From Candidatus Faecicola pullistercoris (GTDB lineage Bacteria > Bacillota > Clostridia > Christensenellales > CAG-917): 64,000 nt of DNA. The notes under the pieces were generated by a model that was not told the DNA's origin, did not search any database, and was given only the letters and a program-made list of their open reading frames with translations. Shown here piece after piece: positions 1,948-36,562 of the stretch. The stretch covers positions 5,689 through 69,688 of the forward strand of contig DVNW01000006.1 of NCBI GenBank assembly GCA_018714105.1, given 5' to 3'. The position numbers and the translations under genes are program-made. Position 1 is the stretch's first letter; every line of letters starts with the position of its first letter.

Positions 1948-3147
1948 TCAGACGTTGAAATGTTTTTTTAATGCCTTTTCGGCCTCGTCGCCCTTGGCGC
2001 CTTCGACGCAACAGCTTATTTTTGTTTCGCTTGTGGTTACGGCAAATACTTTGGCGCCGATTCCTGCGAGCTGTTCGAACACGTCTTTGGCAACTCCGCC
2101 GGTATGCGCCATGCCCGCGCCTTCGGAGGTGATTTTGCAGGTGTTCCGCACGGCTTCGTAGCCGAGATTCATGGCTTTCAGACAGTTAAACGCTTTGTCC
2201 GCGTCAGTGTCCGGAAGGGTGAACGACAGCGAAAACGCGCAACCCGTAACAGGAGTTTGCGATATCATATCGAGGTTTACGTTCTTATCCGAGAGGGCGG
2301 AAAGCAGCTTGATTATGGAGTCTGCGCCGATACAGGGCAGAGTGATAAGAGTAACGTCCTTTTCGCTCGTTACCGTGGTTACCGCGTACAGACTGCCCAG
2401 AATACTTGACATATCGTACATGCCGTGAGGCTTGCCGCACATGAACTTTGCCGCTCTTACGGCGCCCTGTGCGAAAACTTCCTTGCCCTCGGCTTCGTGC
2501 TTCAGCGTTATGACCTCGCCCGTGCCGATAAACATAACGTCGTGTTTACCGATAATGGTGCCGCCGCGCACGGCGTGCACGCCTATTTCGTTTTTGGTCC
2601 TGCGCTGATTGGAACTGTGTCTGCCGAATACGAGAGGGCTGGGGAAATCCCTTACGCTCTGTACGGCTTTTGCGAGAGAGAGCGCCGTGCCGCTGGGGCT
2701 GTCCACTTTCTTGTCGTGGTGCTGTTCGATAATTTCAATCTCGTAATCGGGCCCCAGAAATTTAGCCGCGTCCTTGGCAAGTCCGGTAAGCAGATTAATG
2801 CCCAGCGACATGTTGCTGGCCATAAAGATGCCCGTTTTTTCCGAAGCCGCCCTGATACTTTCGAGTTGCTCCGCCGAGTGGCCCGTCGTGGCTATTACGA
2901 GGTTGGTGCCTGTGTTTACTGCGTAGGCGAGAAGTTCGTCCAGCGCTTCGGGTTTGGAAAAGTCGATAATTACGTCGGCTCTGCCTTCGATTTTATCGAA
3001 CGACGGATACACGGGCACGTCGAGATTTATCAAATCCGCCATTTTATCTATACCGCAAACCAGTTTAAAGTCCGGATTCGAGTTTATGAGCGAATACATT
3101 GTATTGCCCATTCTGCCGCCTATTCCGCAAATAATAACCTTAATCAT
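1948..3147 (-). CDS. dapB: 4-hydroxy-tetrahydrodipicolinate reductase with C-terminal aspartokinase-like ACT-ACT extension
   Basis: CGIGGRMG Rossmann loop and EQHHDKKVDSPSGTA DapB motif. About 145 extra C-terminal residues resemble the LysC regulatory ACT pair (GAGMAHTGGVAKDVFEQLAGIGAKVFAVTTSETKIS). Confidence 0.85.
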   Translation of the reverse strand: MIKVIICGIGGRMGNTMYSLINSNPDFKLVCGIDKMADLINLDVPVYPSFDKIEGRADVIIDFSKPEALDELLAYAVNTGTNLVIATTGHSAEQLESIRAASEKTGIFMASNMSLGINLLTGLAKDAAKFLGPDYEIEIIEQHHDKKVDSPSGTALSLAKAVQSVRDFPSPLVFGRHSSNQRRTKNEIGVHAVRGGTIIGKHDVMFIGTGEVITLKHEAEGKEVFAQGAVRAAKFMCGKPHGMYDMSSILGSLYAVTTVTSEKDVTLITLPCIGADSIIKLLSALSDKNVNLDMISQTPVTGCAFSLSFTLPDTDADKAFNCLKAMNLGYEAVRNTCKITSEGAGMAHTGGVAKDVFEQLAGIGAKVFAVTTSETKISCCVEGAKGDEAEKALKKHFNV

Positions 3148-3162
3148 GTTTCTCCTTACGGG

Positions 3163-4044
3163 CTATTTTACAAGTTGTAAGCCCTTCATCTGAGTGTATA
3201 ATTTCTGCGCGTTCGCCTCTTCCATAACGGTAAGGGGCAGTCTTACGTAGTCCGAGCACAGGCCCATAAAGCTTGCCGCTTTTTTGGCGGGTATGGGGTT
3301 GACTTCGCTGAACAGCGCTTTTACGAGAGGATATACGTTCAGCTGCATTTCGGCGGCTTTTAGGGTATCGCCGCCAAGGTAAGCCTTAATCATATCGTGC
3401 ATATAGCGGGGCATGATGTTGGAAGCAACCGAAATAAGGCCCTTTCCGCCCACGCTCATAACCGGAACGGCAATGCCGTCGTCGCCCGAGTATACGCAGG
3501 CAAGCCCCTGACAGCACCGCGCGCAGTCGGTAATCTGATCCATGTTGCCGCTTGCTTCCTTGATGCCGTCGATATTGTCTATCGCGGCAATTTCCTTAAA
3601 AGTGGCGGGCAGAAGATTTACCCCCGTCCTTCCGGGAACGTTGTAGCATATTATCGGGATATCCACGCTGCGGGCCACGGCGGAATAATGCTCCACAAGG
3701 CCTTTCTGCGTGCATTTGTTGTAGTAGGGGGTTACCACAAGAAGGCCGTCTACGCCGAGATCCGCGTAGGCTTTGGACTTGGCTATTACTTCGGCGGTAT
3801 TGTTGCCGCCGCTGCCCGCAATAACGGGTACGCGTCCTCCGACCTTTTCCACGGCAAACTTGATAACCGCAGTTTTTTCGGCGTCGGTCATGGTGCTGGG
3901 TTCGCCCGTGGTGCCGCATATTACAAGTCCGTCGATGCCGCCTTCGATTTGAAATTCCAAAAGTTTTTCAAGGCTTGAAAAGTCTACTCCGTCCGGGGTA
4001 AAAGGCGTTATCAGCGCAGTTGCGCAACCTTCGAATAAAGACAT
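3163..4044 (-). CDS. dapA: 4-hydroxy-tetrahydrodipicolinate synthase
   Basis: 293 aa. Contains CGTTGEPSTMTDAEK and the Schiff-base lysine context DGIKEASGN. Confidence 0.95.
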   Translation of the reverse strand: MSLFEGCATALITPFTPDGVDFSSLEKLLEFQIEGGIDGLVICGTTGEPSTMTDAEKTAVIKFAVEKVGGRVPVIAGSGGNNTAEVIAKSKAYADLGVDGLLVVTPYYNKCTQKGLVEHYSAVARSVDIPIICYNVPGRTGVNLLPATFKEIAAIDNIDGIKEASGNMDQITDCARCCQGLACVYSGDDGIAVPVMSVGGKGLISVASNIMPRYMHDMIKAYLGGDTLKAAEMQLNVYPLVKALFSEVNPIPAKKAASFMGLCSDYVRLPLTVMEEANAQKLYTQMKGLQLVK

Positions 4045-4055
4045 AAGCTACTCCT

Positions 4056-5057
4056 TTAATTGTTTTGGGATTGGATTAATTTTTGTGCAATCTGCACGGC
4101 GTTGGTGGCGGCGCCTTTTCTGATATTGTCGGCTACGCACCAGATATTGCAGCCGCTTTCCACGCTTTCGTCGATTCTTACGCGGCCGACAAACACTTCG
4201 TCCTTGCCCTCGGCGTCGATAGCCATGGGGTATACGCAGTTTGCGATGTCGTCTTTAAGCACGAGTCCTTCGGCGGAAGCGAGGGCGTCCTTAATTCCTT
4301 GCAGAGTACAGGGCTTTTCGAATTCTATATTGATGGATTCGCTGTGGCCGTGGAATACGGGCACTCTAACCGTGGTAGCCGTGATTTTAAGGCTTTGGTC
4401 GTGCAGAATTTTTTTGGTTTCTTCAATCATCTTCATTTCCTCTTTGGTGTATCCGTTGTCGAGGAATACGTCGATCTGAGGCAGACAGTTGGCGAAAATG
4501 GGGTGATTGAATTTTACGGGCGGCACGCCTTTGATACCGTCTTCGAGGTCCTTGTATCCCTGTACGCCCGCGCCCGAAACGGCCTGGTAAGTGCTGTATA
4601 CTATACGTTTGATTTTGTATTTGTCGTGAAGGGGTTTAAGGGCGACCATAGCCTGTATGGTAGAGCAGTTGGGGTTAGCGATAATACCCTTGTTCCACGC
4701 GATATCCTCGGGGTTGACCTCGGGAACTACAAGCGGGACTTCGGGATCCATGCGCCAGCAGCTGCTGTTGTCTATAACCACCGCGCCTTGCGCCGCAAAC
4801 ACGGGAGCAAAAGCCTTGCTTGTGCCCGCGCCGGCCGAAAACAGGGCGATATCTATATTGAGCGCTTTGACGTTTTCTTCGGTAAGCTCTATAACGGTGT
4901 GTTTTTTACCCATGAAATCTATTTCTTTACCCGCGCTTTTTTTGGAAGCGAACAGATAGTAATTTTCTACGGGCAGCTTTCTTTCGGAAAGAACCTTTAA
5001 AAACATGTTGCCGACCATACCGGTCGCGCCTACTACGGCGATATTGTATTTTTTCAT
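4056..5057 (-). CDS. asd: aspartate-semialdehyde dehydrogenase
   Basis: 333 aa. Contains VVGATGMVG NAD loop and the active-site ANPNCSTIQ. Confidence 0.95.
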   Translation of the reverse strand: MKKYNIAVVGATGMVGNMFLKVLSERKLPVENYYLFASKKSAGKEIDFMGKKHTVIELTEENVKALNIDIALFSAGAGTSKAFAPVFAAQGAVVIDNSSCWRMDPEVPLVVPEVNPEDIAWNKGIIANPNCSTIQAMVALKPLHDKYKIKRIVYSTYQAVSGAGVQGYKDLEDGIKGVPPVKFNHPIFANCLPQIDVFLDNGYTKEEMKMIEETKKILHDQSLKITATTVRVPVFHGHSESINIEFEKPCTLQGIKDALASAEGLVLKDDIANCVYPMAIDAEGKDEVFVGRVRIDESVESGCNIWCVADNIRKGAATNAVQIAQKLIQSQNN

Positions 5058-11583: not shown

Positions 11584-13062
<1,479 letters not shown>

Positions 13063-13071
13063 GAAAAGATT

Positions 13072-14601
13072 ATGAAAGAAACCGTATTGGTAATAGATTT
13101 CGGCGGACAGTACAATCAGCTGATTGCGCGCAGGGTAAGGGATCTCAACGTATATTGCGAGCTCATACCGTGCGGTACTCCGCTTGAAAAAATCAAAGCA
13201 AAAAACCCTATAGGCATTATTTTTACCGGAGGTCCGAACAGCGTTTTCGGGGCGGACGCGCTTAAAGTCGACGAGGGAATATATACTCTGGGCGTGCCCG
13301 TACTTGGTATATGCTACGGGGCGCAGCTTATAGCTCATCAGCTGGGCGGAAAAGTCAGAAGCGCGGCCGTAGGCGAATACGGTCAGGTAAAGGCGGTATA
13401 TAAAAAGAGCGTGATATTCGACGGCCTTCCCGAAGAGGGCGTTTGCTGGATGAGTCATACCGACTCGGTATCCGAGCTTCCCGACGGATTCGAGATTACG
13501 GCGTTCACGGCGGACTGTCCCGTAGCCGCAATGCAGAATACTCAGAAAAGGATTTACGCCGTACAGTTCCATCCCGAAGTCGCGCATACTCAGAACGGAA
13601 CGCTCATGCTCAAAAACTTTTTGTATAAGGCGTGCGGCGCGAGCGGCGATTGGACAATGAAGGATTTTGTGGCAAGAAAGGTTGCCGAAATACGCGAAAA
13701 GGTAGGCGACAAAAAGGTGCTTTGCGCCATGAGCGGCGGCGTTGACAGCGCGGTTGCGGCCACTCTCGTGCACAGGGCGGTAGGCGACAGGCTTACCTGC
13801 GTTTACGTAGATCACGGTCTTATGCGCAAAAACGAAACCGAAGAAGTCAGACAGGTTTTTAAAGACGGCCTGGGTATGAACCTTATTCTTGCCGACGCAG
13901 AGGAGCTTTTCCTCAGAAAACTCGCCGGAGTTACCGATCCCGAGAGCAAGCGCAAAATAATAGGCCGCGAGTTTATCACCGTATTCGAAAGAGAGGCTGA
14001 AAAAATAGGCAAGGTGGATTACTTGGTTCAGGGCACGATATATCCCGACGTAATCGAAAGCGGAAGCGGCGATTCGGCCGTAATCAAAAGCCATCATAAC
14101 GTGGGCGGCCTGCCCGACGTCGTGGACTTCGAGGAAATAATAGAGCCTCTCCGCGACCTTTTCAAGGACGAGGTGCGTGCGGTAGGGTTCGAACTCGGCC
14201 TGCCCGAACAGGTGGTAATGCGTCAGCCTTTCCCCGGCCCCGGTCTGGGCATAAGAGTTATAGGAGAAATCACCAAGGAAAAACTGGAAACTCTGAGAGA
14301 AGCCGACTTTATTTACCGCGAGGAAATCGCCAAAGCAGGGCTTTCCGGACAGATATGGCAGTACTTTGCCGTGCTCACCGATACCCGCAGCGTGGGAGTA
14401 ATGGGCGATATGCGCACTTACGATTATACCGTTGCCTTACGAGCGGTGCTCAGCGTGGACGCAATGACCGCGGACTGGGCGAAAATCCCTTACGAAGTAC
14501 TCGGCGCGGTAAGCAGCAGGATAGTCAACGAGGTCAGAAACGTAAACCGAGTCGTTTACGACATAACCAGCAAACCTCCCGCTACTATAGAGTGGGAATA
14601 A
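13072..14601 (+). CDS. guaA: GMP synthase (glutamine-hydrolysing)
   Basis: GATase catalytic GICYGAQ, ATP-PPase loop SGGVDS, C-terminal TIEWE. Confidence 0.97.
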
Positions 14602-14689: not shown

Positions 14690-16273
14690 ATGGTATACGG
14701 AAACGTAAAGGGAATAAAGAGCAGCGTGATAAGGCAGCTCGAAGAGCTTGCGGGCGAGTACGAAAAAAGCCTTTTTATAGACAGAGAGGTCCTGTTTTAT
14801 GTTTGCGAATTATCTGTCAGGATAAACCGCGAAATTTGCGTTTACGTCACCCGCAACGGCCAAATTGCCGCAATAGGCATAGGAAACGACGCTTCCGCGC
14901 CCCTTAAAGACCTGGGGCGCCGCAGAGGCGAGGACAGATTGAGCAAAATCCGGGTTATCCATACTCACCCTGACGGAAACGGCCGTCTTTCGCAGACGAA
15001 TATGTCGGCTTTAGCTTCGTTGCGCCTGGACTGCATAGCCGCGGTAGGCGTTACCCACGACGGTATAACGGATATGGAAGTCGGATATATCGGAGCAGAA
15101 GGGGACGAAAAAGTATATTACAAGTCGGCTCTCGATATGGACGACGAAAAACTCCTCGAACGCATATTCCGAAGCGAAAGCGATTATTCGGCTCAAAAAC
15201 GCGCCGTCGAAAAAGGCAAAGCCGTTCTGGCGGCCGTAGGCGATTTCGGCACGACCGAGATGGACGAGCTGCAAAGCCTTGCTTCCACCGCAGGCATCAA
15301 AACTGCGGCGCGGGTGGTTCAGGGCAAAAGCCGCCCCGACAAAACTTATTGTATAGGAAGCGGCAAACTTGAAGAGCTTAAACATATTGTACAGAATACC
15401 TCGGCGGAATACGTTATATTCAACAATACTCTTACGGGAAGCCAGCTGAATAATCTTGAAACCGCGCTGGGCGTCAAAGTAATAGACCGCCCTATGCTTA
15501 TACTTGAGATTTTTGCCCGCCACGCGACAAGCAACGAAGGAAAACTTCAGGTCGAACTTGCCATGATGCAATACACTCTGCCCAAAATAATGGGCATGGG
15601 CACCGAGCTTTCCCGCATAGGCGGAGGCAGCGGTTCAAGTTTTACAAGGGGCGCGGGAGAAACCAAACTCGAAACCGATCGCAGACACATAAGACGCACC
15701 ATATTCGAACTGTCCGAAAAAATCGAAAAGCTGAAAAAAGAGAGAGATCTGCGCCGTAACCGCCGAATAAAAAGCGGCATAAAGACCGTTGCCATAGTCG
15801 GGTACACCAACGCGGGAAAATCCACTCTTATGAACGCTCTTACGAAGGCGGGAGTAAAGGAAGAGGATAAACTGTTCGCCACGCTCGATCCCGTTACAAG
15901 AAAGGTGTTTTGCGATATCGGGCAGGAATATCTTTTAACGGATACGGTAGGGTTTATCGACAATCTTCCGCACGAGTTCGTCAAAGCCTTTAAATCCACT
16001 TTGGAGGAGGCCGTTTACGCCGATCTGCTGCTGCACGTCGTGGACGCAAGCAGTAAGGACGTAACCAGGCAGGTAGGTGCGGTAGAAAAAGTATTGGCCG
16101 AACTGGGCGCGGGAGATAAGCCCGTCATAACGGTTTTGAACAAATCCGACAAGCCGTCGGCAGTCGGTTTCGACGCCGCGGACGCCGTCAGAATTTCCGC
16201 GCTTACAGGCGCCGGGCTTGACGTTTTAAGAGAAAAAATCTGCGAAAAATTATTCGGCAAAACCGAGAAATAA
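14690..16273 (+). CDS. hflX: GTPase HflX with ~175-aa N-terminal extension
   Basis: HflX N-domain (GSGKLEELK) and G-domain motifs GYTNAGKST, DTVGF, NKSD. The canonical HflX part starts near aa 176. Confidence 0.9.
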   Translation: MVYGNVKGIKSSVIRQLEELAGEYEKSLFIDREVLFYVCELSVRINREICVYVTRNGQIAAIGIGNDASAPLKDLGRRRGEDRLSKIRVIHTHPDGNGRLSQTNMSALASLRLDCIAAVGVTHDGITDMEVGYIGAEGDEKVYYKSALDMDDEKLLERIFRSESDYSAQKRAVEKGKAVLAAVGDFGTTEMDELQSLASTAGIKTAARVVQGKSRPDKTYCIGSGKLEELKHIVQNTSAEYVIFNNTLTGSQLNNLETALGVKVIDRPMLILEIFARHATSNEGKLQVELAMMQYTLPKIMGMGTELSRIGGGSGSSFTRGAGETKLETDRRHIRRTIFELSEKIEKLKKERDLRRNRRIKSGIKTVAIVGYTNAGKSTLMNALTKAGVKEEDKLFATLDPVTRKVFCDIGQEYLLTDTVGFIDNLPHEFVKAFKSTLEEAVYADLLLHVVDASSKDVTRQVGAVEKVLAELGAGDKPVITVLNKSDKPSAVGFDAADAVRISALTGAGLDVLREKICEKLFGKTEK

Positions 16274-16331
16274 TTCATAAACGCACTTTAAAACGTGCAT
16301 TTTTGCTTGTTAAACTTTGATAATGCAAGTT

Positions 16332-16366
16332 AAAAATAAACCGCCCGTTCAGGGCGGTTTTGCCTT
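16332..16366. terminator. Bidirectional intrinsic terminator (hflX / small Cys-rich ORF)
   Basis: CCGCCC-gttca-GGGCGG with a T-run on the + strand and TTTATTTTT on the - strand. Confidence 0.7.
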
Positions 16367-16384
16367 TTAAGGCGACTTTAAACC

Positions 16385-16552
16385 TTATTTGCAGCAAGTG
16401 TTGCCGCAGCAGCAGTTTAAAATAAGTAATAAGGGTAAAATGTCGCAAATGCAGTTATTGTTGCAACCGCAGCCGCAACCGTTGCCGCAGCAGCACAATA
16501 AAATAAGTATCCACAGAGTGCAATCGCAACCACCGCCGAATAATCCGTTCAT
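16385..16552 (-). CDS. Unannotated 55-aa cysteine-rich small hydrophobic protein
   Basis: Own translation. ATG at 16552 lies 7 nt after AAGGAGG; TAA at 16387-16385. Sequence MNGLFGGGCDCTLWILILLCCCGNGCGCGCNNNCICDILPLLLILNCCCGNTCCK. Flanked by terminators on both sides. Below the 60-aa cutoff of the ORF track. Confidence 0.6.
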   Translation of the reverse strand: MNGLFGGGCDCTLWILILLCCCGNGCGCGCNNNCICDILPLLLILNCCCGNTCCK

Positions 16553-16644
16553 ACAGCCACCTCCTTAAAGAATTAGGCAACCCCAGATTGCCTTACACTT
16601 TACAATACGCAAAGGCACCGAAATATGTTACTGCCGAAGGGGGA

Positions 16645-16675
16645 AAATCAAAAAACCCGTCATAAAACGACGGGC
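16645..16675 (-). terminator. Intrinsic terminator after the zinc-ribbon gene
   Basis: Minus strand CCCGTC-GTTTTAT-GACGGG followed by TTTTTTGATTTT. Confidence 0.65.
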
Positions 16676-16700
16676 GGGACAATATAATTGAATTTATACC

Positions 16701-16976
16701 TTATCTGCTTTTTCTAACGATGGTGCATTTGCACAAAGGGCAGGTGTTTTTGTGGGCGGATGGGTTGATGCGTATTTTCTGTTTGCAGTTCGGGCACAGT
16801 ATAACTTCGGTCGCGGCAACGGGCGTCGGAAGCGGTTTTTTTGCCTTTTCGGGCAGGGTCGGCGCGCGGTTGCGCACGATAACCGAGCCGCAAACGGCGC
16901 AGCGGTTTCTTTTAGCCTGATCGTCAATCTGAATCTGTTCTTCGCATTCGGGGCAGGTGATAATTTTTAAAGCCAT
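16701..16976 (-). CDS. Small tandem zinc-ribbon protein
   Basis: 91 aa with two CxxC-x17/18-CxxC modules (CPECEEQIQIDDQAKRNRCAVCG and CPNCKQKIRINPSAHKNTCPLCK) joined by a Pro/Lys linker. Confidence 0.7.
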   Translation of the reverse strand: MALKIITCPECEEQIQIDDQAKRNRCAVCGSVIVRNRAPTLPEKAKKPLPTPVAATEVILCPNCKQKIRINPSAHKNTCPLCKCTIVRKSR

Positions 16977-17125
16977 AATTTCCTCTTATCGGTAAAATAT
17001 ATTTATTCTAAGAAAATTATATAGTGCGTTCGGGCCGAAATCAACAGAAATTCCGCATTTGTCAAAAAATTTTTTCGGGCTGTGCAGGGCGGCTTTTAAA
17101 AATTGGTTCACGCGGGTTTTTTCGC

Positions 17126-17154
17126 TTGACATTTCCAATCATAATAAATAGAAT
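17126..17154 (+). promoter_or_regulatory. Sigma-A type promoter of glyQS
   Basis: TTGACA, 17 nt, TAGAAT. The leader is only about 40 nt. Confidence 0.55.
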
Positions 17155-17195
17155 TAATATAATTAAAACAAGGCGAAAGCCTGAGAGGGTTTAAA

Positions 17196-18581
17196 ATGGC
17201 TGATTTGACAATGGACAAACTCGTGGCACTCTGTAAGAACAGAGGTTTTATTTTTGCCGGAAGCGAAATATACGGCGGACTTGCAAATACGTGGGATTAC
17301 GGCCCTTTGGGCAGTCTTCTCAAAAACAACATCAAAGCCGCCTGGCTTAAAAAATTCGTGCAGGAAAGCCCTTACAACGTAAGCGTTGACTGCGCCATAC
17401 TCATGAATCCCAGAACGTGGGAAGCCAGCGGACATCTGAGCGGATTTTCCGACCCGCTTATGGACTGCAAAGGCTGCAAGGCAAGGCACCGCGCGGACAA
17501 TCTGATAGAAGATTACATGGCCAAAAAGGGCATATCGCAGAATATAGCCGGCTGGACGGGCGAACAGATGGAAGAGTATATCAGGGAAAATAAAATTCCC
17601 TGTCCCGTATGCGGCAGAAGCGATTTTACGGGCATACGCAAGTTCAACCTGATGTTCAAGACGTTCCAGGGCGTTACCGAGGACAGTTCAAGCACGGTAT
17701 ATTTGAGGCCCGAGACGGCGCAGGGCATTTTTGTTAACTTCAAAAACGTACAGCGCGCTTCCAGGCTCAAAATACCTTTCGGAATCTGTCAGGTAGGCAA
17801 GAGTTTCCGTAACGAGATTACTCCCGGCAACTTTACTTTCCGTACGAGGGAATTCGAGCAGATGGAACTTGAATTTTTCTGCAAGCCCGGCACCGACCTC
17901 GAATGGTTTGCCTACTGGAAGGATTTTTGCCACAAGTGGCTGCTGGGCCTTAATATGAATCCCGAAAAACTGCGTCTCCGCGACCACGACAAAGAAGAAC
18001 TGTGCTTTTACAGCAAGGCTACCACGGACTTCGAATATCTGTTCCCCTTCGGTTGGGGCGAACTCTGGGGCATAGCGGACAGGACGGATTACGACCTTAA
18101 TCAGCACATCAAAACCAGCGGCGAAAACATGGATTATATCGATCCCGTTACAAACGAGAGATACGTTCCGTACGTTGTCGAGCCCTCGCTAGGAGCGGAC
18201 AGGGTGCTGCTTGCTTTTCTGTGCGACGCCTACGAGGAGCAGCAGCTTGAAGGCGGCGATACCAGGGTGGTTATGCATCTGCATCACGCCCTTGCTCCGT
18301 ACAAAGTCGCCGTACTGCCCTTACAGAAAAAGCTTTCCGACAAGGCGGAAGAAATATACCGCAGCCTGAGTAAGCGTTACAGCGCGACTTACGACGATAC
18401 CGGGTCAATCGGCAAGAGATACAGACGTCAGGACGAAATAGGCACTCCTTACTGCCTGACCGTAGATTTCGATACGCTCGAAAAAGGCACCGTCACCATA
18501 CGCGAACGCGACAGCATGCAACAGGTAACATTGCCGGTTGAAGAGGTTACAAACTATCTCGACAAGGCGCTGGAATACTGA
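17196..18581 (+). CDS. glyQS: Glycine--tRNA ligase (dimeric class II type)
   Basis: 461 aa. N-terminus is [24 protein letters not shown]. Confidence 0.95.
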
Positions 18582-33174: not shown

Positions 33175-33555
33175 TCAGAAAATATCCTTGAAGTCGAAAT
33201 CCACCGTACTCTGTACGTTTTTAATTAAAATCAGAAGGCTTTGGGTTTTGCTTTTTGCGTTCTGAAGGTCGTCGGCTTGCAAAGAGCCCTTTATTTCGCC
33301 TATGGTAACCGAAACCGTACGTGTATCGGGCGAATAGGTAAAGGTGTCGATATATACTTTCTGTTTCTCCCACCAGGCCAGCATCTCGTCGGTGCGCGCG
33401 AGAGCAGTTTTCGCATCGCCTGAATCGACTGCAAAATCCACGGCCTCGACGAGGTTTTCAAAACGGCTGAAAATCTCGTGGGTGCGGTGATGGTCGTATA
33501 TGCCCGCAGACAGTATTACGGCAAGCATGGCGGCGGCTATCGTCAGACGTTTCAT
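33175..33555 (-). CDS. DUF4363-family protein
   Basis: Signal/anchor MKRLTIAAAMLAVILSA followed by a helical domain. ATGA start/stop overlap with the upstream DUF421 gene. Confidence 0.65.
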   Translation of the reverse strand: MKRLTIAAAMLAVILSAGIYDHHRTHEIFSRFENLVEAVDFAVDSGDAKTALARTDEMLAWWEKQKVYIDTFTYSPDTRTVSVTIGEIKGSLQADDLQNAKSKTQSLLILIKNVQSTVDFDFKDIF

Positions 33556-34274
33556 TCCAGTTTCCCCATATAGCAAGGTTTTAAATAAGGTTGCACAAAC
33601 AAGGTTTTATCCTGTGTAACAGTCATTAAAAACACTTGTTTTTGTATTAATTGCAGCTTTTGCAGTTGCAATTCGATTTGCTGCTCGGAAAGGCCCAGTT
33701 TTATTAAATTGTTTTTGAGAAGCCGGCCTTCGGCTATTACGGTATAGGGCAGAAATTTTTCGCGGTTACTTAGGCCCGCGTCAGACGGGGTATAGGGCGA
33801 ATTGGCGTATTTGGGCATTACGCTCAGGCTGCCGTTGGTTTCGAGCACGGCAAATTCGATTTCTTCCGGGAAGAAATATCCCGCTATGCGCAGGGCTTCG
33901 GAAATGTCGTCCGAATCCATATCCGCCGATTTGACCGCGCGTGTGTCTATATTGCCGCCGTTGATTATTATAAGCGGTTTTCCGTTTAAGATTTTCCTGA
34001 AACGCGGACTTTTTACGGCGATAAAGTTCATGGTTATATGAACTATAAAAAGAGTGAAAACGGGAATTATTCCGTATATGAGCGGTATGGACGGATCGCC
34101 CATGGGCAGACAGGCTAGTTCCGCAATAACCAGCGTTATGGAAAATTCGAAAGGTTGTAACTGTCCTATCTGCCGTTTGCCCATAAGCCGCATTACTATC
34201 AGCAGCACTATATACAAAAGGGCGGATTTCACCATAATATTAAGCATATGGTTATTGTAAATATTATTTGGCAA
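33552..34274 (-). CDS. DUF421 (YetF-like) membrane protein
   Basis: VMRLMGKRQIGQLQPFEFSITLVIAELA is the DUF421 hallmark. The start is uncertain: TTG at 34274, or ATG at 34247 or 34235. Confidence 0.75.
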   Translation of the reverse strand: MPNNIYNNHMLNIMVKSALLYIVLLIVMRLMGKRQIGQLQPFEFSITLVIAELACLPMGDPSIPLIYGIIPVFTLFIVHITMNFIAVKSPRFRKILNGKPLIIINGGNIDTRAVKSADMDSDDISEALRIAGYFFPEEIEFAVLETNGSLSVMPKYANSPYTPSDAGLSNREKFLPYTVIAEGRLLKNNLIKLGLSEQQIELQLQKLQLIQKQVFLMTVTQDKTLFVQPYLKPCYMGKLE

Positions 34275-34478: not shown

Positions 34479-35051
34479 ATGACTTATTATTCATCGCAAC
34501 AGGAAATGGACGCGGCGATAGCCGTTCGTCCGCAGGCCAAAAAGCGCCTGACCAACAAGCAGATTGCCTTTATTTCGGTATTTGTGGCCATTTCGGTAAC
34601 CGTAAACGCCGTAGCCGCAAGGGCAATGGGCAACAAACTGTCGTTCGCCTATACGATAGACTTTATGGCAGGATACTTTTTCGGCGGGATCGCGGGTCTT
34701 TTGGTAGGAGGCATAGGCGATTTGCTGGGCTGTCTTCTGGCCGGTTACGCGCCTAATCCTTTTATATTGCTTTCGTCCTGTCTTCTGGGATTTATACCGG
34801 GCATGGTAAAAAAGTTAAAGGTCAGTCTGCCCGCATCGATAGTTATAAGCTATGCTCTTACTCTGACTGTATGCACGGCGTTTATCAATACCTACGGCTT
34901 ATGGCTTATGTACGGCGGCGGACGCACCTTTTTCGCTTATATGGCGGTAAGGCTGACGGCTCAGGCGCCGGTAATAATCGCCAACATCGCGCTTACCTTT
35001 TTCATAATGCCGCTGTTCAGGAAGGTGCTTAAAGCCGAAATTTTCAATTAA
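34479..35051 (+). CDS. folT: ECF transporter S component, folate family
   Basis: 190-aa, 6-TM S-component-like protein directly behind the THF riboswitch. Confidence 0.8.
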   Translation: MTYYSSQQEMDAAIAVRPQAKKRLTNKQIAFISVFVAISVTVNAVAARAMGNKLSFAYTIDFMAGYFFGGIAGLLVGGIGDLLGCLLAGYAPNPFILLSSCLLGFIPGMVKKLKVSLPASIVISYALTLTVCTAFINTYGLWLMYGGGRTFFAYMAVRLTAQAPVIIANIALTFFIMPLFRKVLKAEIFN

Positions 35052-36562
35052 AACATTCTTGCTTTGCGTTTGAGGATACGGGCGGCGTTCAGGTTTACGA
35101 ATACCGTCTTATAGTCCGTTACGCCCGTGAGCTGAGTAAACACGACGTACATACCTGTTGCGCCCGCGGCGGCAAACGGTACGGAAATAATATCGGGCGC
35201 GAAAGCCGAAACTATGCCCAGCAGAAATCTGCAGAATACGGCAGACGGAACGGCACACAGTACGGAGAAGGCCATTTTTTTTGCAGGTATCTCGAAACGG
35301 CACTTTTTATATAGCAAACGTATATTTAAAATACTTGTAAGTGTAAACGACAGGATAAAGCCTAACGCTATCGAATATATTCCTATAAACTTCGGAGTAA
35401 ATACTATGCTCAGCAAAAGCAGCGATGCCCCCGCCAGATAATGGAAAAAGGTTCTTTTTTCCATGCCCAGCGAATTAAGCATGCTTGCGCTGAGCTGGTT
35501 CAGTCCCATAGGGAATATAAGCACGGCGGCAATGCTAACGAAGCGGCCTGACGGCGCGTCGTTGAAAAGAAGCACGGTTATGCTTTCGCCCATAGGCACG
35601 TACAGCATACAGAATGCCGAAGCTATTATCGTGAGAAACAGCAGCGAAGAAGTGATTTTGGCCGTTAATTCGTGCTGTTTCTGCGCCCGGTCGGCTATTT
35701 CGGGCACAAGCACTACCGACAGCGAACCCGTCAGAGTGGTCGGAGCCATAAGCAGAGGAAGGGCCATTCCCGCAACGCGGCCGTATTCGGCCGTAGCCTG
35801 ATATATGTCCATACCGGCCGATACGAGGCGCATGGGTATTACTATTGCCGTCAGGCTGGTTATCAGCCCCGAAAACAGCCTCATCAGCGTTATGGGCAAA
35901 CTTTCTTTAATCAGCAATCCGGCGGAGGAAGGCGCGGCGACGCCGCCCTTCTTTTTTGCGTATATCGCTATCAGCATAACGGCGCAAATTACGTCCGAAA
36001 CGGTAAACGCCGCCGCTATGCCCGTCGCGCCTGCAAGACTGCTGATTATTCCGCTTGCCAGAAAGACGCTCAGCAGAGCGCGAATTACTTCTTCGGCAAG
36101 TTCGGTAACGCTGTAAGTAAGGTAATCTCTTTTTCCCAGAAGCCAGGCTCGGAATACGCAATATACGGCCGAAGTTACGAGTGCGGGCAGCATAATCGTA
36201 AACAGCGGCATTGCGCGTTCGTCCTTGAAAAGCACGGAAAAAGACTGTCTGAAAAGCAGAAATGCCCCTACGGTTATCAGAGCCGTAGATACCGATACGG
36301 CGAGCGAAGCCGAAATATACGAGGCCGATATTTTACGGTCGGCGGACGGCAGGGCGGCTATTCTGCGCGAAAGTATAAGCGGTATGCCCGAGCAGGAAAA
36401 CGCCGCCAGGGTAAAGAATACGGACAGGCAGATCTGATACAGCCCGACGGCTTCCGCACCCAGCTTGCGGGACAGATATATTTTGAATAAAAAAGCAATG
36501 GCGCGGGTAATTACCGAAAATACGCTGACCAGCGCAACCGCTTTGAACAGTTTTGTTTTGAT
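35048..36562 (-). CDS. MOP-superfamily flippase (SpoVB/MurJ-like), apparent ATC start
   Basis: The frame is open from TAA at 36577-36575 down to 35048. The N-terminus (I/M)KTKLFKAVALVSVFSVITRAIAFLFKIYLSRKLGAEAVGLYQ is a typical flippase start. There is no in-frame ATG, GTG or TTG before the GTG at 36235. AAAGGAG lies 7 nt upstream of the ATC at 36562. Confidence 0.75.
   Translation of the reverse strand: MKTKLFKAVALVSVFSVITRAIAFLFKIYLSRKLGAEAVGLYQICLSVFFTLAAFSCSGIPLILSRRIAALPSADRKISASYISASLAVSVSTALITVGAFLLFRQSFSVLFKDERAMPLFTIMLPALVTSAVYCVFRAWLLGKRDYLTYSVTELAEEVIRALLSVFLASGIISSLAGATGIAAAFTVSDVICAVMLIAIYAKKKGGVAAPSSAGLLIKESLPITLMRLFSGLITSLTAIVIPMRLVSAGMDIYQATAEYGRVAGMALPLLMAPTTLTGSLSVVLVPEIADRAQKQHELTAKITSSLLFLTIIASAFCMLYVPMGESITVLLFNDAPSGRFVSIAAVLIFPMGLNQLSASMLNSLGMEKRTFFHYLAGASLLLLSIVFTPKFIGIYSIALGFILSFTLTSILNIRLLYKKCRFEIPAKKMAFSVLCAVPSAVFCRFLLGIVSAFAPDIISVPFAAAGATGMYVVFTQLTGVTDYKTVFVNLNAARILKRKARMF

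Follow-up and report, generated by a model that had tools for sequence, protein, structure and literature searches.

Coat and exosporium proteins of bacterial endospores are synthesized in the cytoplasm of the mother cell and deposited on the forespore. CotY, CotZ and ExsY of Bacilli are cysteine-rich morphogenetic proteins of the spore surface, and CdeC and CdeM of Clostridioides difficile have a late mother-cell, sigma-K-dependent origin. The latter two proteins, which are found in the exosporium, are rich in cysteine and are thought to cross-link via disulfides (PMC9542656). Micro-proteins also act in this process: SpoVM and CmpA of Bacillus subtilis are made in the mother cell, reside at the forespore surface and link assembly of the coat to that of the cortex (PMC10730256). 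Here we describe a gene for a 55-residue, Cys-rich micro-protein in a 64,000-nucleotide (nt) stretch of DNA from Candidatus Faecicola pullistercoris (contig DVNW01000006.1; hereafter, the window). This open reading frame (ORF) is a genuine monocistronic gene under purifying selection and, judged by sequence, its product belongs to an uncurated, Clostridia-wide family of Cys-rich hydrophobic mini-proteins. We propose, with a probability of roughly 55%, that the protein is expressed under sigma-K, lacks a signal peptide, and is a component of the spore envelope that is probably cross-linked through its cysteines; we infer its expression, location and chemistry from features of the gene and its relatives.

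The family is not homologous to known small sporulation proteins or to Cys-rich coat proteins. The micro-protein shares with CdeC and CdeM a high content of Cys and the absence of a signal peptide, and this is the functional analogy that we favor. However, proteins of the CdeC/CdeM type are 160–405 amino acids (aa) long, soluble or self-assembling, devoid of short hydrophobic helices and dissimilar in sequence, and CdeC and CdeM themselves are restricted to Peptostreptococcaceae. SpoVM and CmpA resemble the family in being micro-proteins and in their mother-cell origin, which for the family is a proposal, but they are early, sigma-E-dependent proteins built from one amphipathic helix that are neither rich in Cys nor homologous.

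A preliminary description of this DNA, made from the sequence alone, had suggested a link to the small sporulation proteins of the YjcZ type. Both groups are tiny (30–70 aa), occur in endospore-formers, are often missed in annotation and are named after or associated with sporulation, and in both a hydrophobic stretch rich in Leu and Ile comes after a Gly-rich N-terminus. The resemblance did not extend to homology. The window peptide showed no match to PF09680/TIGR01732 at E<=10, nor did any of 40 family members at E<=1. An approximate consensus was used as bait to collect YjcZ proteins, all of which carry PF09680 and many of which are named YjcZ by NCBI; when 36 of these genuine proteins were aligned and compared with the family profile by hhalign, the probability of homology was 0.3%. 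The architectures also differ. YjcZ proteins have one invariant segment of ~17 residues, FALIVVLFILLIIVGA, with Tyr/Gly tails, few Cys and no Cys clusters, whereas family members carry two segments of 8 residues with CCC after each, and have a Cys content of 18–27%; YjcZ is found in Bacilli and the micro-protein family in Clostridia. The literature that we found on YjcZ consisted of gene lists only.

A second suggestion in the preliminary description, that similar peptides of Clostridia carry a chorion label, proved correct as to the label: several members are named “chorion class high-cysteine HCB protein 13” by NCBI and UniRef. The name is a compositional annotation artefact. The chorion HCB proteins of Bombyx mori, which are eukaryotic eggshell proteins, resemble the family only in their Cys/Gly-rich low complexity; Pfam chorion models matched neither the window peptide at E<=10 nor any of the 40 members at E<=1, and the sole paper that we found with the chorion HCB term concerned the silkworm.

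A conserved gene and its protein family

The coding sequence occupies positions 16385–16552 of the minus strand, from an ATG start to a stop codon that is included in this interval, and is supported by homologues, substitution ratios and indels. Its product is MNGLFGGGCDCTLWILILLCCCGNGCGCGCNNNCICDILPLLLILNCCCGNTCCK, in which 15 of the 55 residues are Cys. There is no Arg, and the single Lys is C-terminal, so that trypsin would give no internal peptides. A Shine-Dalgarno (SD) sequence, AAGGAGG (16560–16566, minus strand), is separated from the ATG by a 7-nt spacer, and GGAGG is kept at this place in all relatives. Two modules are apparent from the family alignments and their statistics. Module 1 (residues 10–24; 16481–16525, minus strand) has the pattern D-C-T-LWILILL-CCC-G-N, and module 2 (residues 37–51; 16400–16444, minus strand) the pattern D-ILPLLLIL-N-CCC-G-N. 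At the DNA level, a 15-nt repeat, GTTGCCGCAGCAGCA, at 16400–16414 and 16481–16495 forms the core of a larger direct repeat, whose 38-nt copies at 16391–16428 and 16472–16509 are 84% identical. The copies are spaced by 81 nt, which is exactly 27 codons, and the duplication is therefore in frame. The gene is bounded by two intrinsic terminators. That of an upstream zinc-ribbon ORF (16655–16675, minus strand; a 9-bp stem with 5 GC pairs, followed by TTTTTTGATTT) shields the gene from read-through. The other (16338–16360) has a 9-bp stem with 6 GC pairs and T-runs on both strands, and is bidirectional, ending both the micro-protein gene on the minus strand and the convergent hflX on the plus strand, which itself ends at 16273. 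The Cys-rich frame of 55 codons with its consensus SD, the two hydrophobic stretches each followed by CCCGN, the short direct repeat and the flanking terminators had all been noticed in the preliminary description, and all of them are present, the repeat as part of the larger unit.

With one sequence as query, 5.8 billion proteins yielded five relatives; HMMER, run exhaustively over 1.84 billion representatives, gave five matches, two of which the first search had also found. The window peptide in its exact form had no entry among the public assemblies consulted, a set from which the window's organism is thus absent. A profile made from eight sequences extended the family to 79 clusters at E<=0.01. 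The closest relatives are 69–83% identical to the window peptide. When the DNA was aligned with that of relatives, the frame was kept, and every indel in the central Gly/Cys linker was a multiple of three. The ratio of nonsynonymous to synonymous substitution (dN/dS) was obtained by Nei-Gojobori counts for the window against four related loci. It was 0.027 against L067 and 0.21–0.24 against L001, L026 and L027, with synonymous sites near saturation in all four comparisons (proportion of synonymous differences, pS, 0.54–0.75). Between the window and L067, codon position 3 holds 24 of the 36 differences. The preliminary description had proposed to examine frame conservation and synonymous versus nonsynonymous change in relatives; with the frame intact and dN/dS at 0.03–0.24, its claim of an autonomous monocistronic gene with an internal module duplication is borne out. 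A 59-aa ORF on the opposite strand (16389–16568, plus strand) was also considered and rejected: antisense frames are open in just 2–5 of 28 distinct family genes.

Members of the family are 52–80 aa long, with few longer ones. Exactly two hydrophobic segments were found in 73 of 75 members, and the segment is exactly 8 residues long in 118 of 150 cases. It is followed by CCC (82) or SCC (20), usually then by G-(N/G). A typical module reads (D/N)-x-x-[L/I]-W-I-L-[I/L]-L-L-C-C-C-G-N, and in the window's group the second module reads C-[I/L]-C-D-I-L-P-L-L-L-I-L-N-C-C-C-G. The two modules are joined and flanked by linkers rich in Gly, Cys and Asn, and the mean composition is 18% Cys, 19% Gly and 11% Asn, with just 8% charged residues. 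Two members depart from this plan. One (P0072) has three modules in 132 aa, and another (P0008), possibly a frameshifted or degenerate copy, has module 1 alone, followed by an unrelated charged C-terminus; the number of modules is thus evolutionarily plastic. A Lachnospiraceae subgroup (L010, L011, L018–L020, L022–L024, L028–L035 and L069–L071) shares a conserved extension at the N-terminus, MSDLAATNCGC(G/D)C, which is absent from the window's group.

According to the source records, the carriers are all Clostridia, with the exception of one contig. They include Blautia, Roseburia/Brotonthovivens, Kineothrix and other Lachnospiraceae, as well as Christensenella and Catabacter-type metagenome-assembled genomes and “Faecalibacterium sp. 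CAG:1138”. Cultured carriers are Blautia sp. An46 and An81 (WP_087274134.1 and WP_087418771.1) and Brotonthovivens ammoniilytica (WP_158424001.1). The excepted contig (L021) is filed under Sodaliphilus (Bacteroidales) and carries a variant that is very common in the human gut, MCGFGCGNENIIWILLLLCCCGNN... (L021, L036–L066 and L072). Elsewhere the gene for this variant is surrounded by genes for an AddB-like helicase-nuclease, NrdR and a PRC-barrel protein, a neighborhood of Firmicute type, which indicates that the Sodaliphilus-filed contig was probably mis-binned.

Searches of Pfam, NCBIfam and PDB with the window peptide and 40 members gave no consistent match, and a search of the literature found no paper describing the bacterial family. 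Its members are already in public databases, yet as “hypothetical” or misnamed proteins without a curated model. An AlphaFold2 (AF2) model calculated with a 40-sequence alignment predicts, at low confidence, one helix over each module (residues 9–22 and 38–52) with a disordered linker between them. Each predicted helix would be capped by Asp/Asn at its start and by Gly at its end, with eight aliphatic residues and then the three Cys in between, a length of ~11–14 residues that corresponds to roughly half a bilayer.

A putative sigma-K-type promoter

In the sporulation promoters of C. difficile, sigma-E and sigma-K have the -10 box in common, and the -35 element differs: sigma-K promoters carry “AC” at -35 with a -10 box like CATATAAT, and sigma-E promoters carry “ATA” at -35 (PMC3789822). 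The sequence CATATTAT represents a mother-cell-sigma promoter that resembles the sigma-E type (PMC3789822). In the upstream regions of the relatives, we observed a CATAnnnT(A/G) box 38–53 nt before the ATG, with (A)AC 16–17 nt further upstream. A Gibbs motif search of 24 dereplicated upstream regions (<80% identical) returned de novo the motif xCATAnnATgAA with 9.35 bits, compared to 6.57 +/- 0.37 bits in shuffled sets. The strict pattern AC-N16/17-CATAnnnT, sought 15–90 nt before the ATG, was present in 14 of the 24 family members and in 1 of 141 upstream regions taken from the same loci as controls. With a background density of 1.5e-4 per nt, the binomial p is about 1e-24. After allowing for the kinship of the lineages the significance is lower but still overwhelming. 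The AC at -35 in the family, taken together with the published sigma-K signature, indicates a consensus of the sigma-K type, which serves late expression in the mother cell.

In the window, the predicted -35 element is GTAACA (16626–16631, minus strand; core AC at 16628–16627), which is invariant in the window, L067, L001, L026 and L027 amid diverged flanks. The predicted -10 element, CGTATTGTA (16601–16609, minus strand), lies 17 nt after the AC, has one mismatch to CATAnnnT(A/G) and occurs as the same variant in L067. The arrangement GTAACA-N16-CGTATTGTA is kept in L067, and the GTAACA and TATTGT blocks stand as invariant islands in diverged intergenic DNA; in the family consensus, AC is at -19/-18 from the -10 box. 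A relaxed form of the pattern had eight matches on both strands of the window, and only the CGTATTGTA site is intergenic and upstream of an ORF. Prediction of sigma-70-like promoters in 16553–16700 (minus strand) found none. The micro-protein gene thus appears to be expressed from a sigma-K-type promoter; its dependence on sigma-K and its timing are deduced from the promoter sequence. The search for a sporulation-sigma promoter that the preliminary description had recommended therefore has a positive outcome, and the element is conserved across the family.

Three further features accompany the promoter. At the loci that are linked to gerA (L004, L005 and L013–L017; see below), the -10 box reads CATA(G/C)(G/C)AAT and exceeds the consensus by one base. 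Another conserved element, (G/C)(T/C)(G/A)TAA, with the forms GTGTAA, CCATAA and GCATAA, follows ~4 nt past the -10 box, near the expected start of transcription, for example in L028, L032, L033, L031, L035 and L023, and at 16598–16593 in the window; it could be an initiation region or the site of a regulator. A hairpin, AGGCAATCTGGGGTTGCCT (16575–16593, minus strand), is found close to the start of the predicted 5' untranslated region, with a free energy of -9.8 kcal/mol that is not better than that of shuffled sequences; the SD stays free. Hairpins with different stem sequences are found at the matching position in L001 (3964–3977) and L067 (about 850–888), and in two of the three loci the fold is no better than shuffles. 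Such a hairpin could serve as a 5' stabilizer of the mRNA. An Rfam scan of 15500–17500 gave sub-threshold chance matches only, with no RNA family or leader.

Possible role at the spore envelope

The gene is present in one copy per locus, including the window, and its genomic contexts fall into three conserved types. It is located between glyQS and hflX in the window, L001, L026 and L027, and beside glyQS in L067, whose contig is too short to reach hflX. The glyQS-hflX or glyQS-alone context characterizes the window's lineage and the P0055 group, with GlyQS identity down to 59%. At six Christensenellales-type loci the gene is divergent from a gerAA-gerAB-gerAC operon, although GerAA is just 62–65% identical among them. 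In Blautia and other Lachnospiraceae it lies ~70 nt downstream of the gene for a 564-aa subtilisin-like protein, with protease identity down to 63%; the best PDB matches of this protein are “germination-specific protease” and CspB (E 1e-70 to 1e-67). Two of the three conserved contexts are therefore spore-germination loci, and the carriers all look like endospore-formers. In the window itself, a DUF4363/DUF421 pair (with a YetF-type C-terminal domain) and a gene for a SpoVB-like MOP flippase, at 33175–34274 and 35048–36235 on the minus strand, hint at an endospore-former, although they are not decisive. The organism may on these grounds be capable of sporulation.

The N-terminus of the micro-protein, MNGLFGGGCDC, was inspected by eye and has no Lys/Arg n-region, lipobox or AxA cleavage site, and L-L precedes the Cys clusters. 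The lack of a basic N-region, lipobox and cleavage motif makes export unlikely. We suggest the following course of events. The gene's own sigma-K-type promoter would drive transcription in the mother cell at a late stage of sporulation. Having neither a signal peptide nor a lipobox, the micro-protein would be synthesized in the cytoplasm of that cell. By means of two short hydrophobic helices and ~15 thiols, it may then reach the outer forespore membrane, the coat or the exosporium, where the cysteines might form intermolecular disulfide or metal-thiolate cross-links in the outer layers of the spore. Localization and cross-linking are suggested here by composition. Three roles may be considered for such a protein, namely a membrane thiol or metal cluster, a disulfide-linked spore component and a metallothionein-like peptide, and the evidence favors a spore-associated role among them.

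Several points weigh against a sigma-K-expressed protein of the spore envelope. Because the -10 box is common to sigma-E and sigma-K, the assignment hangs on a two-base -35 element; the strict pattern misses 10 of the 24 family promoters, and the relatedness of these 24 lineages means that the binomial p overstates their independence. The Christensenellales-type group reads CATAnnnnT, and the group of L021 and L036 is without AC at -35. In the window the -10 element has G in place of a highly conserved A (CGTA rather than CATA), which makes its strength and sigma specificity uncertain. The SpoVB-like flippase scores 134 bits against the TIGR02900 cut-off of 372 and is N-terminally short as called, and no unambiguous spo, sig or cot gene was found in the 64-kb window. 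The confidence of the AF2 model is low (predicted local distance difference test, pLDDT, 56; predicted template modelling score, pTM, 0.30), and nothing in the evidence tells localization in the coat apart from localization in a membrane.

A small integral or monotopic membrane hairpin, specific to sporulation and residing in the mother-cell or outer forespore membrane, is an alternative that we consider unlikely but serious. Such a protein might modulate the germination apparatus, the coupling of cortex and coat, or lysis of the mother cell, instead of serving as a structural cross-linker. The helix-linker-helix of the AF2 model (9–22 and 38–52), Kyte-Doolittle values of up to 1.7–1.9 in 19-residue windows and the linkage to gerA or csp in other lineages would all suit it, and SpoVM and CmpA set a precedent for small mother-cell membrane regulators (PMC10730256). 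However, the strictly hydrophobic segments have only 8 residues (11 with CCC), about half of a bilayer span, and nearly no basic residues are available to fix a topology; a Cys content of 18–27% is unusual in membrane helices, and the predicted helices are, again, of low confidence.

A bolder version of the envelope proposal would see in the family a new building block of the spore surface in anaerobic gut Clostridia. The protein would be made late and kept reduced, and would then either form an intermolecular disulfide mesh, hardening the envelope upon lysis of the mother cell and contact with O2, or, through S-acylation of CCC, a proteolipid layer; its placement beside gerA or csp in two lineages would reflect control of germinant access. 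Taken as a whole, this scenario is distinctly improbable, and the simpler proposal of a cross-linked spore-envelope protein remains our preferred one.

The metallothionein-like, peptide-toxin and chance-ORF explanations are progressively less likely. We give little credence to a metallothionein-like or Fe-S/metal-thiolate peptide for storage or detoxification of Zn, Cu, Cd or Fe, possibly in the spore. The CxC, CC and CCC motifs with their Gly/Asn spacers do recall, as a matter of general knowledge, the patterns of metallothioneins, and neither aromatic-rich nor enzyme-like features are present. Yet metallothioneins have nothing that corresponds to the conserved Leu/Ile helices, no Pfam or NCBIfam metallothionein model matched at E<=10, no metal-responsive regulator or transporter adjoins the gene in the window or in the contexts of relatives, and the promoter is of a sporulation rather than a metal-responsive type.

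It is very hard to sustain the notion of a precursor of a bacteriocin or of a ribosomally synthesized and post-translationally modified peptide (RiPP), or of a membrane-damaging peptide like a type I toxin. The product is small, Cys-rich and hydrophobic, and 1 of 40 members had a marginal match to lactococcin-G-alpha (E = 0.042). Nevertheless, in the window and in five other contexts the gene has no conserved neighbor that encodes a maturase (radical-SAM, lanthipeptide or other), a transporter, an immunity protein or a regulator, and the earlier remark that no RiPP maturation enzyme adjoins it holds for the relatives as well as for the window. A lone radical-SAM gene ~4 kb from the P0050 gene (L072) adjoins an NRDD-family gene, is absent from the other contexts and is consistent with an anaerobic ribonucleotide-reductase activase. 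Furthermore, the product lacks a leader and a cleavage motif and matches neither SCIFF nor any other RiPP model, and the position between glyQS and hflX is a stable one in the core genome. Nor did we see a conserved antisense ORF or RNA signal, and the promoter is of sporulation type, in contrast to the sigma-A promoters of the type I toxins of B. subtilis (PMC10730256). Finally, a chance, untranslated ORF in GC-rich, repeat-like intergenic DNA, which the short length, the low complexity and the absence from the annotation track might suggest, is effectively refuted already by the strong purifying selection, the conserved frame, SD, promoter and terminators, and the 79 homologous clusters.

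For many oxygen-sensitive gut commensals, among them Lachnospiraceae, Christensenellales and their relatives, the formation of spores is the means of passage between hosts. To our knowledge, the spore envelopes of such commensals are for the most part uncharacterized and have few proteins in common with those of the models Bacillus and C. difficile. The present family escapes standard annotation, its members being shorter than 60 aa or labelled “chorion protein”. The lack of internal Lys and Arg, the hydrophobicity and the 15 Cys would hide the window peptide from standard spore proteomics, and the family has probably been missed by such studies owing to its absent tryptic sites. The sigma-K-type promoter provides a testable regulatory assignment for the family. 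If this assignment is true, the protein would be a new structural or regulatory component of the clostridial spore and a compact marker of late mother-cell expression in uncultured Clostridia; if it is wrong, the micro-protein family is no less conserved and uncurated, and its name in the databases still has to be corrected.

Neighboring genes and minor observations

In the window, the neighbors of the micro-protein gene are hflX, the zinc-ribbon ORF, glyQS and the genes for a BspA-type leucine-rich repeat protein and TspO. The zinc-ribbon ORF (16701–16976, minus strand) lies directly upstream, encodes 91 aa with two CxxC...CxxC zinc-ribbon halves and has its own terminator. Its matches to Pfam zinc-ribbon models are weak and below the gathering cut-off. 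The syntenic locus L001 lacks this ORF, which therefore does not belong to the micro-protein unit.

Further away, a 614-aa ORF of odd, repetitive composition (12253–14097, minus strand) runs antisense to guaA (13072–14601, plus strand) and is almost certainly a spurious shadow ORF and not a gene. Another region (1948–5057, minus strand) contains a gene assigned as asd by position and N-terminal sequence and a putative dapA, together with a dapB fused to an ACT domain. The fusion protein, a 399-aa DapB with a C-terminal ACT domain supported by Pfam, is unusual and falls in the lysine/diaminopimelate branch, which potentially also serves dipicolinate.

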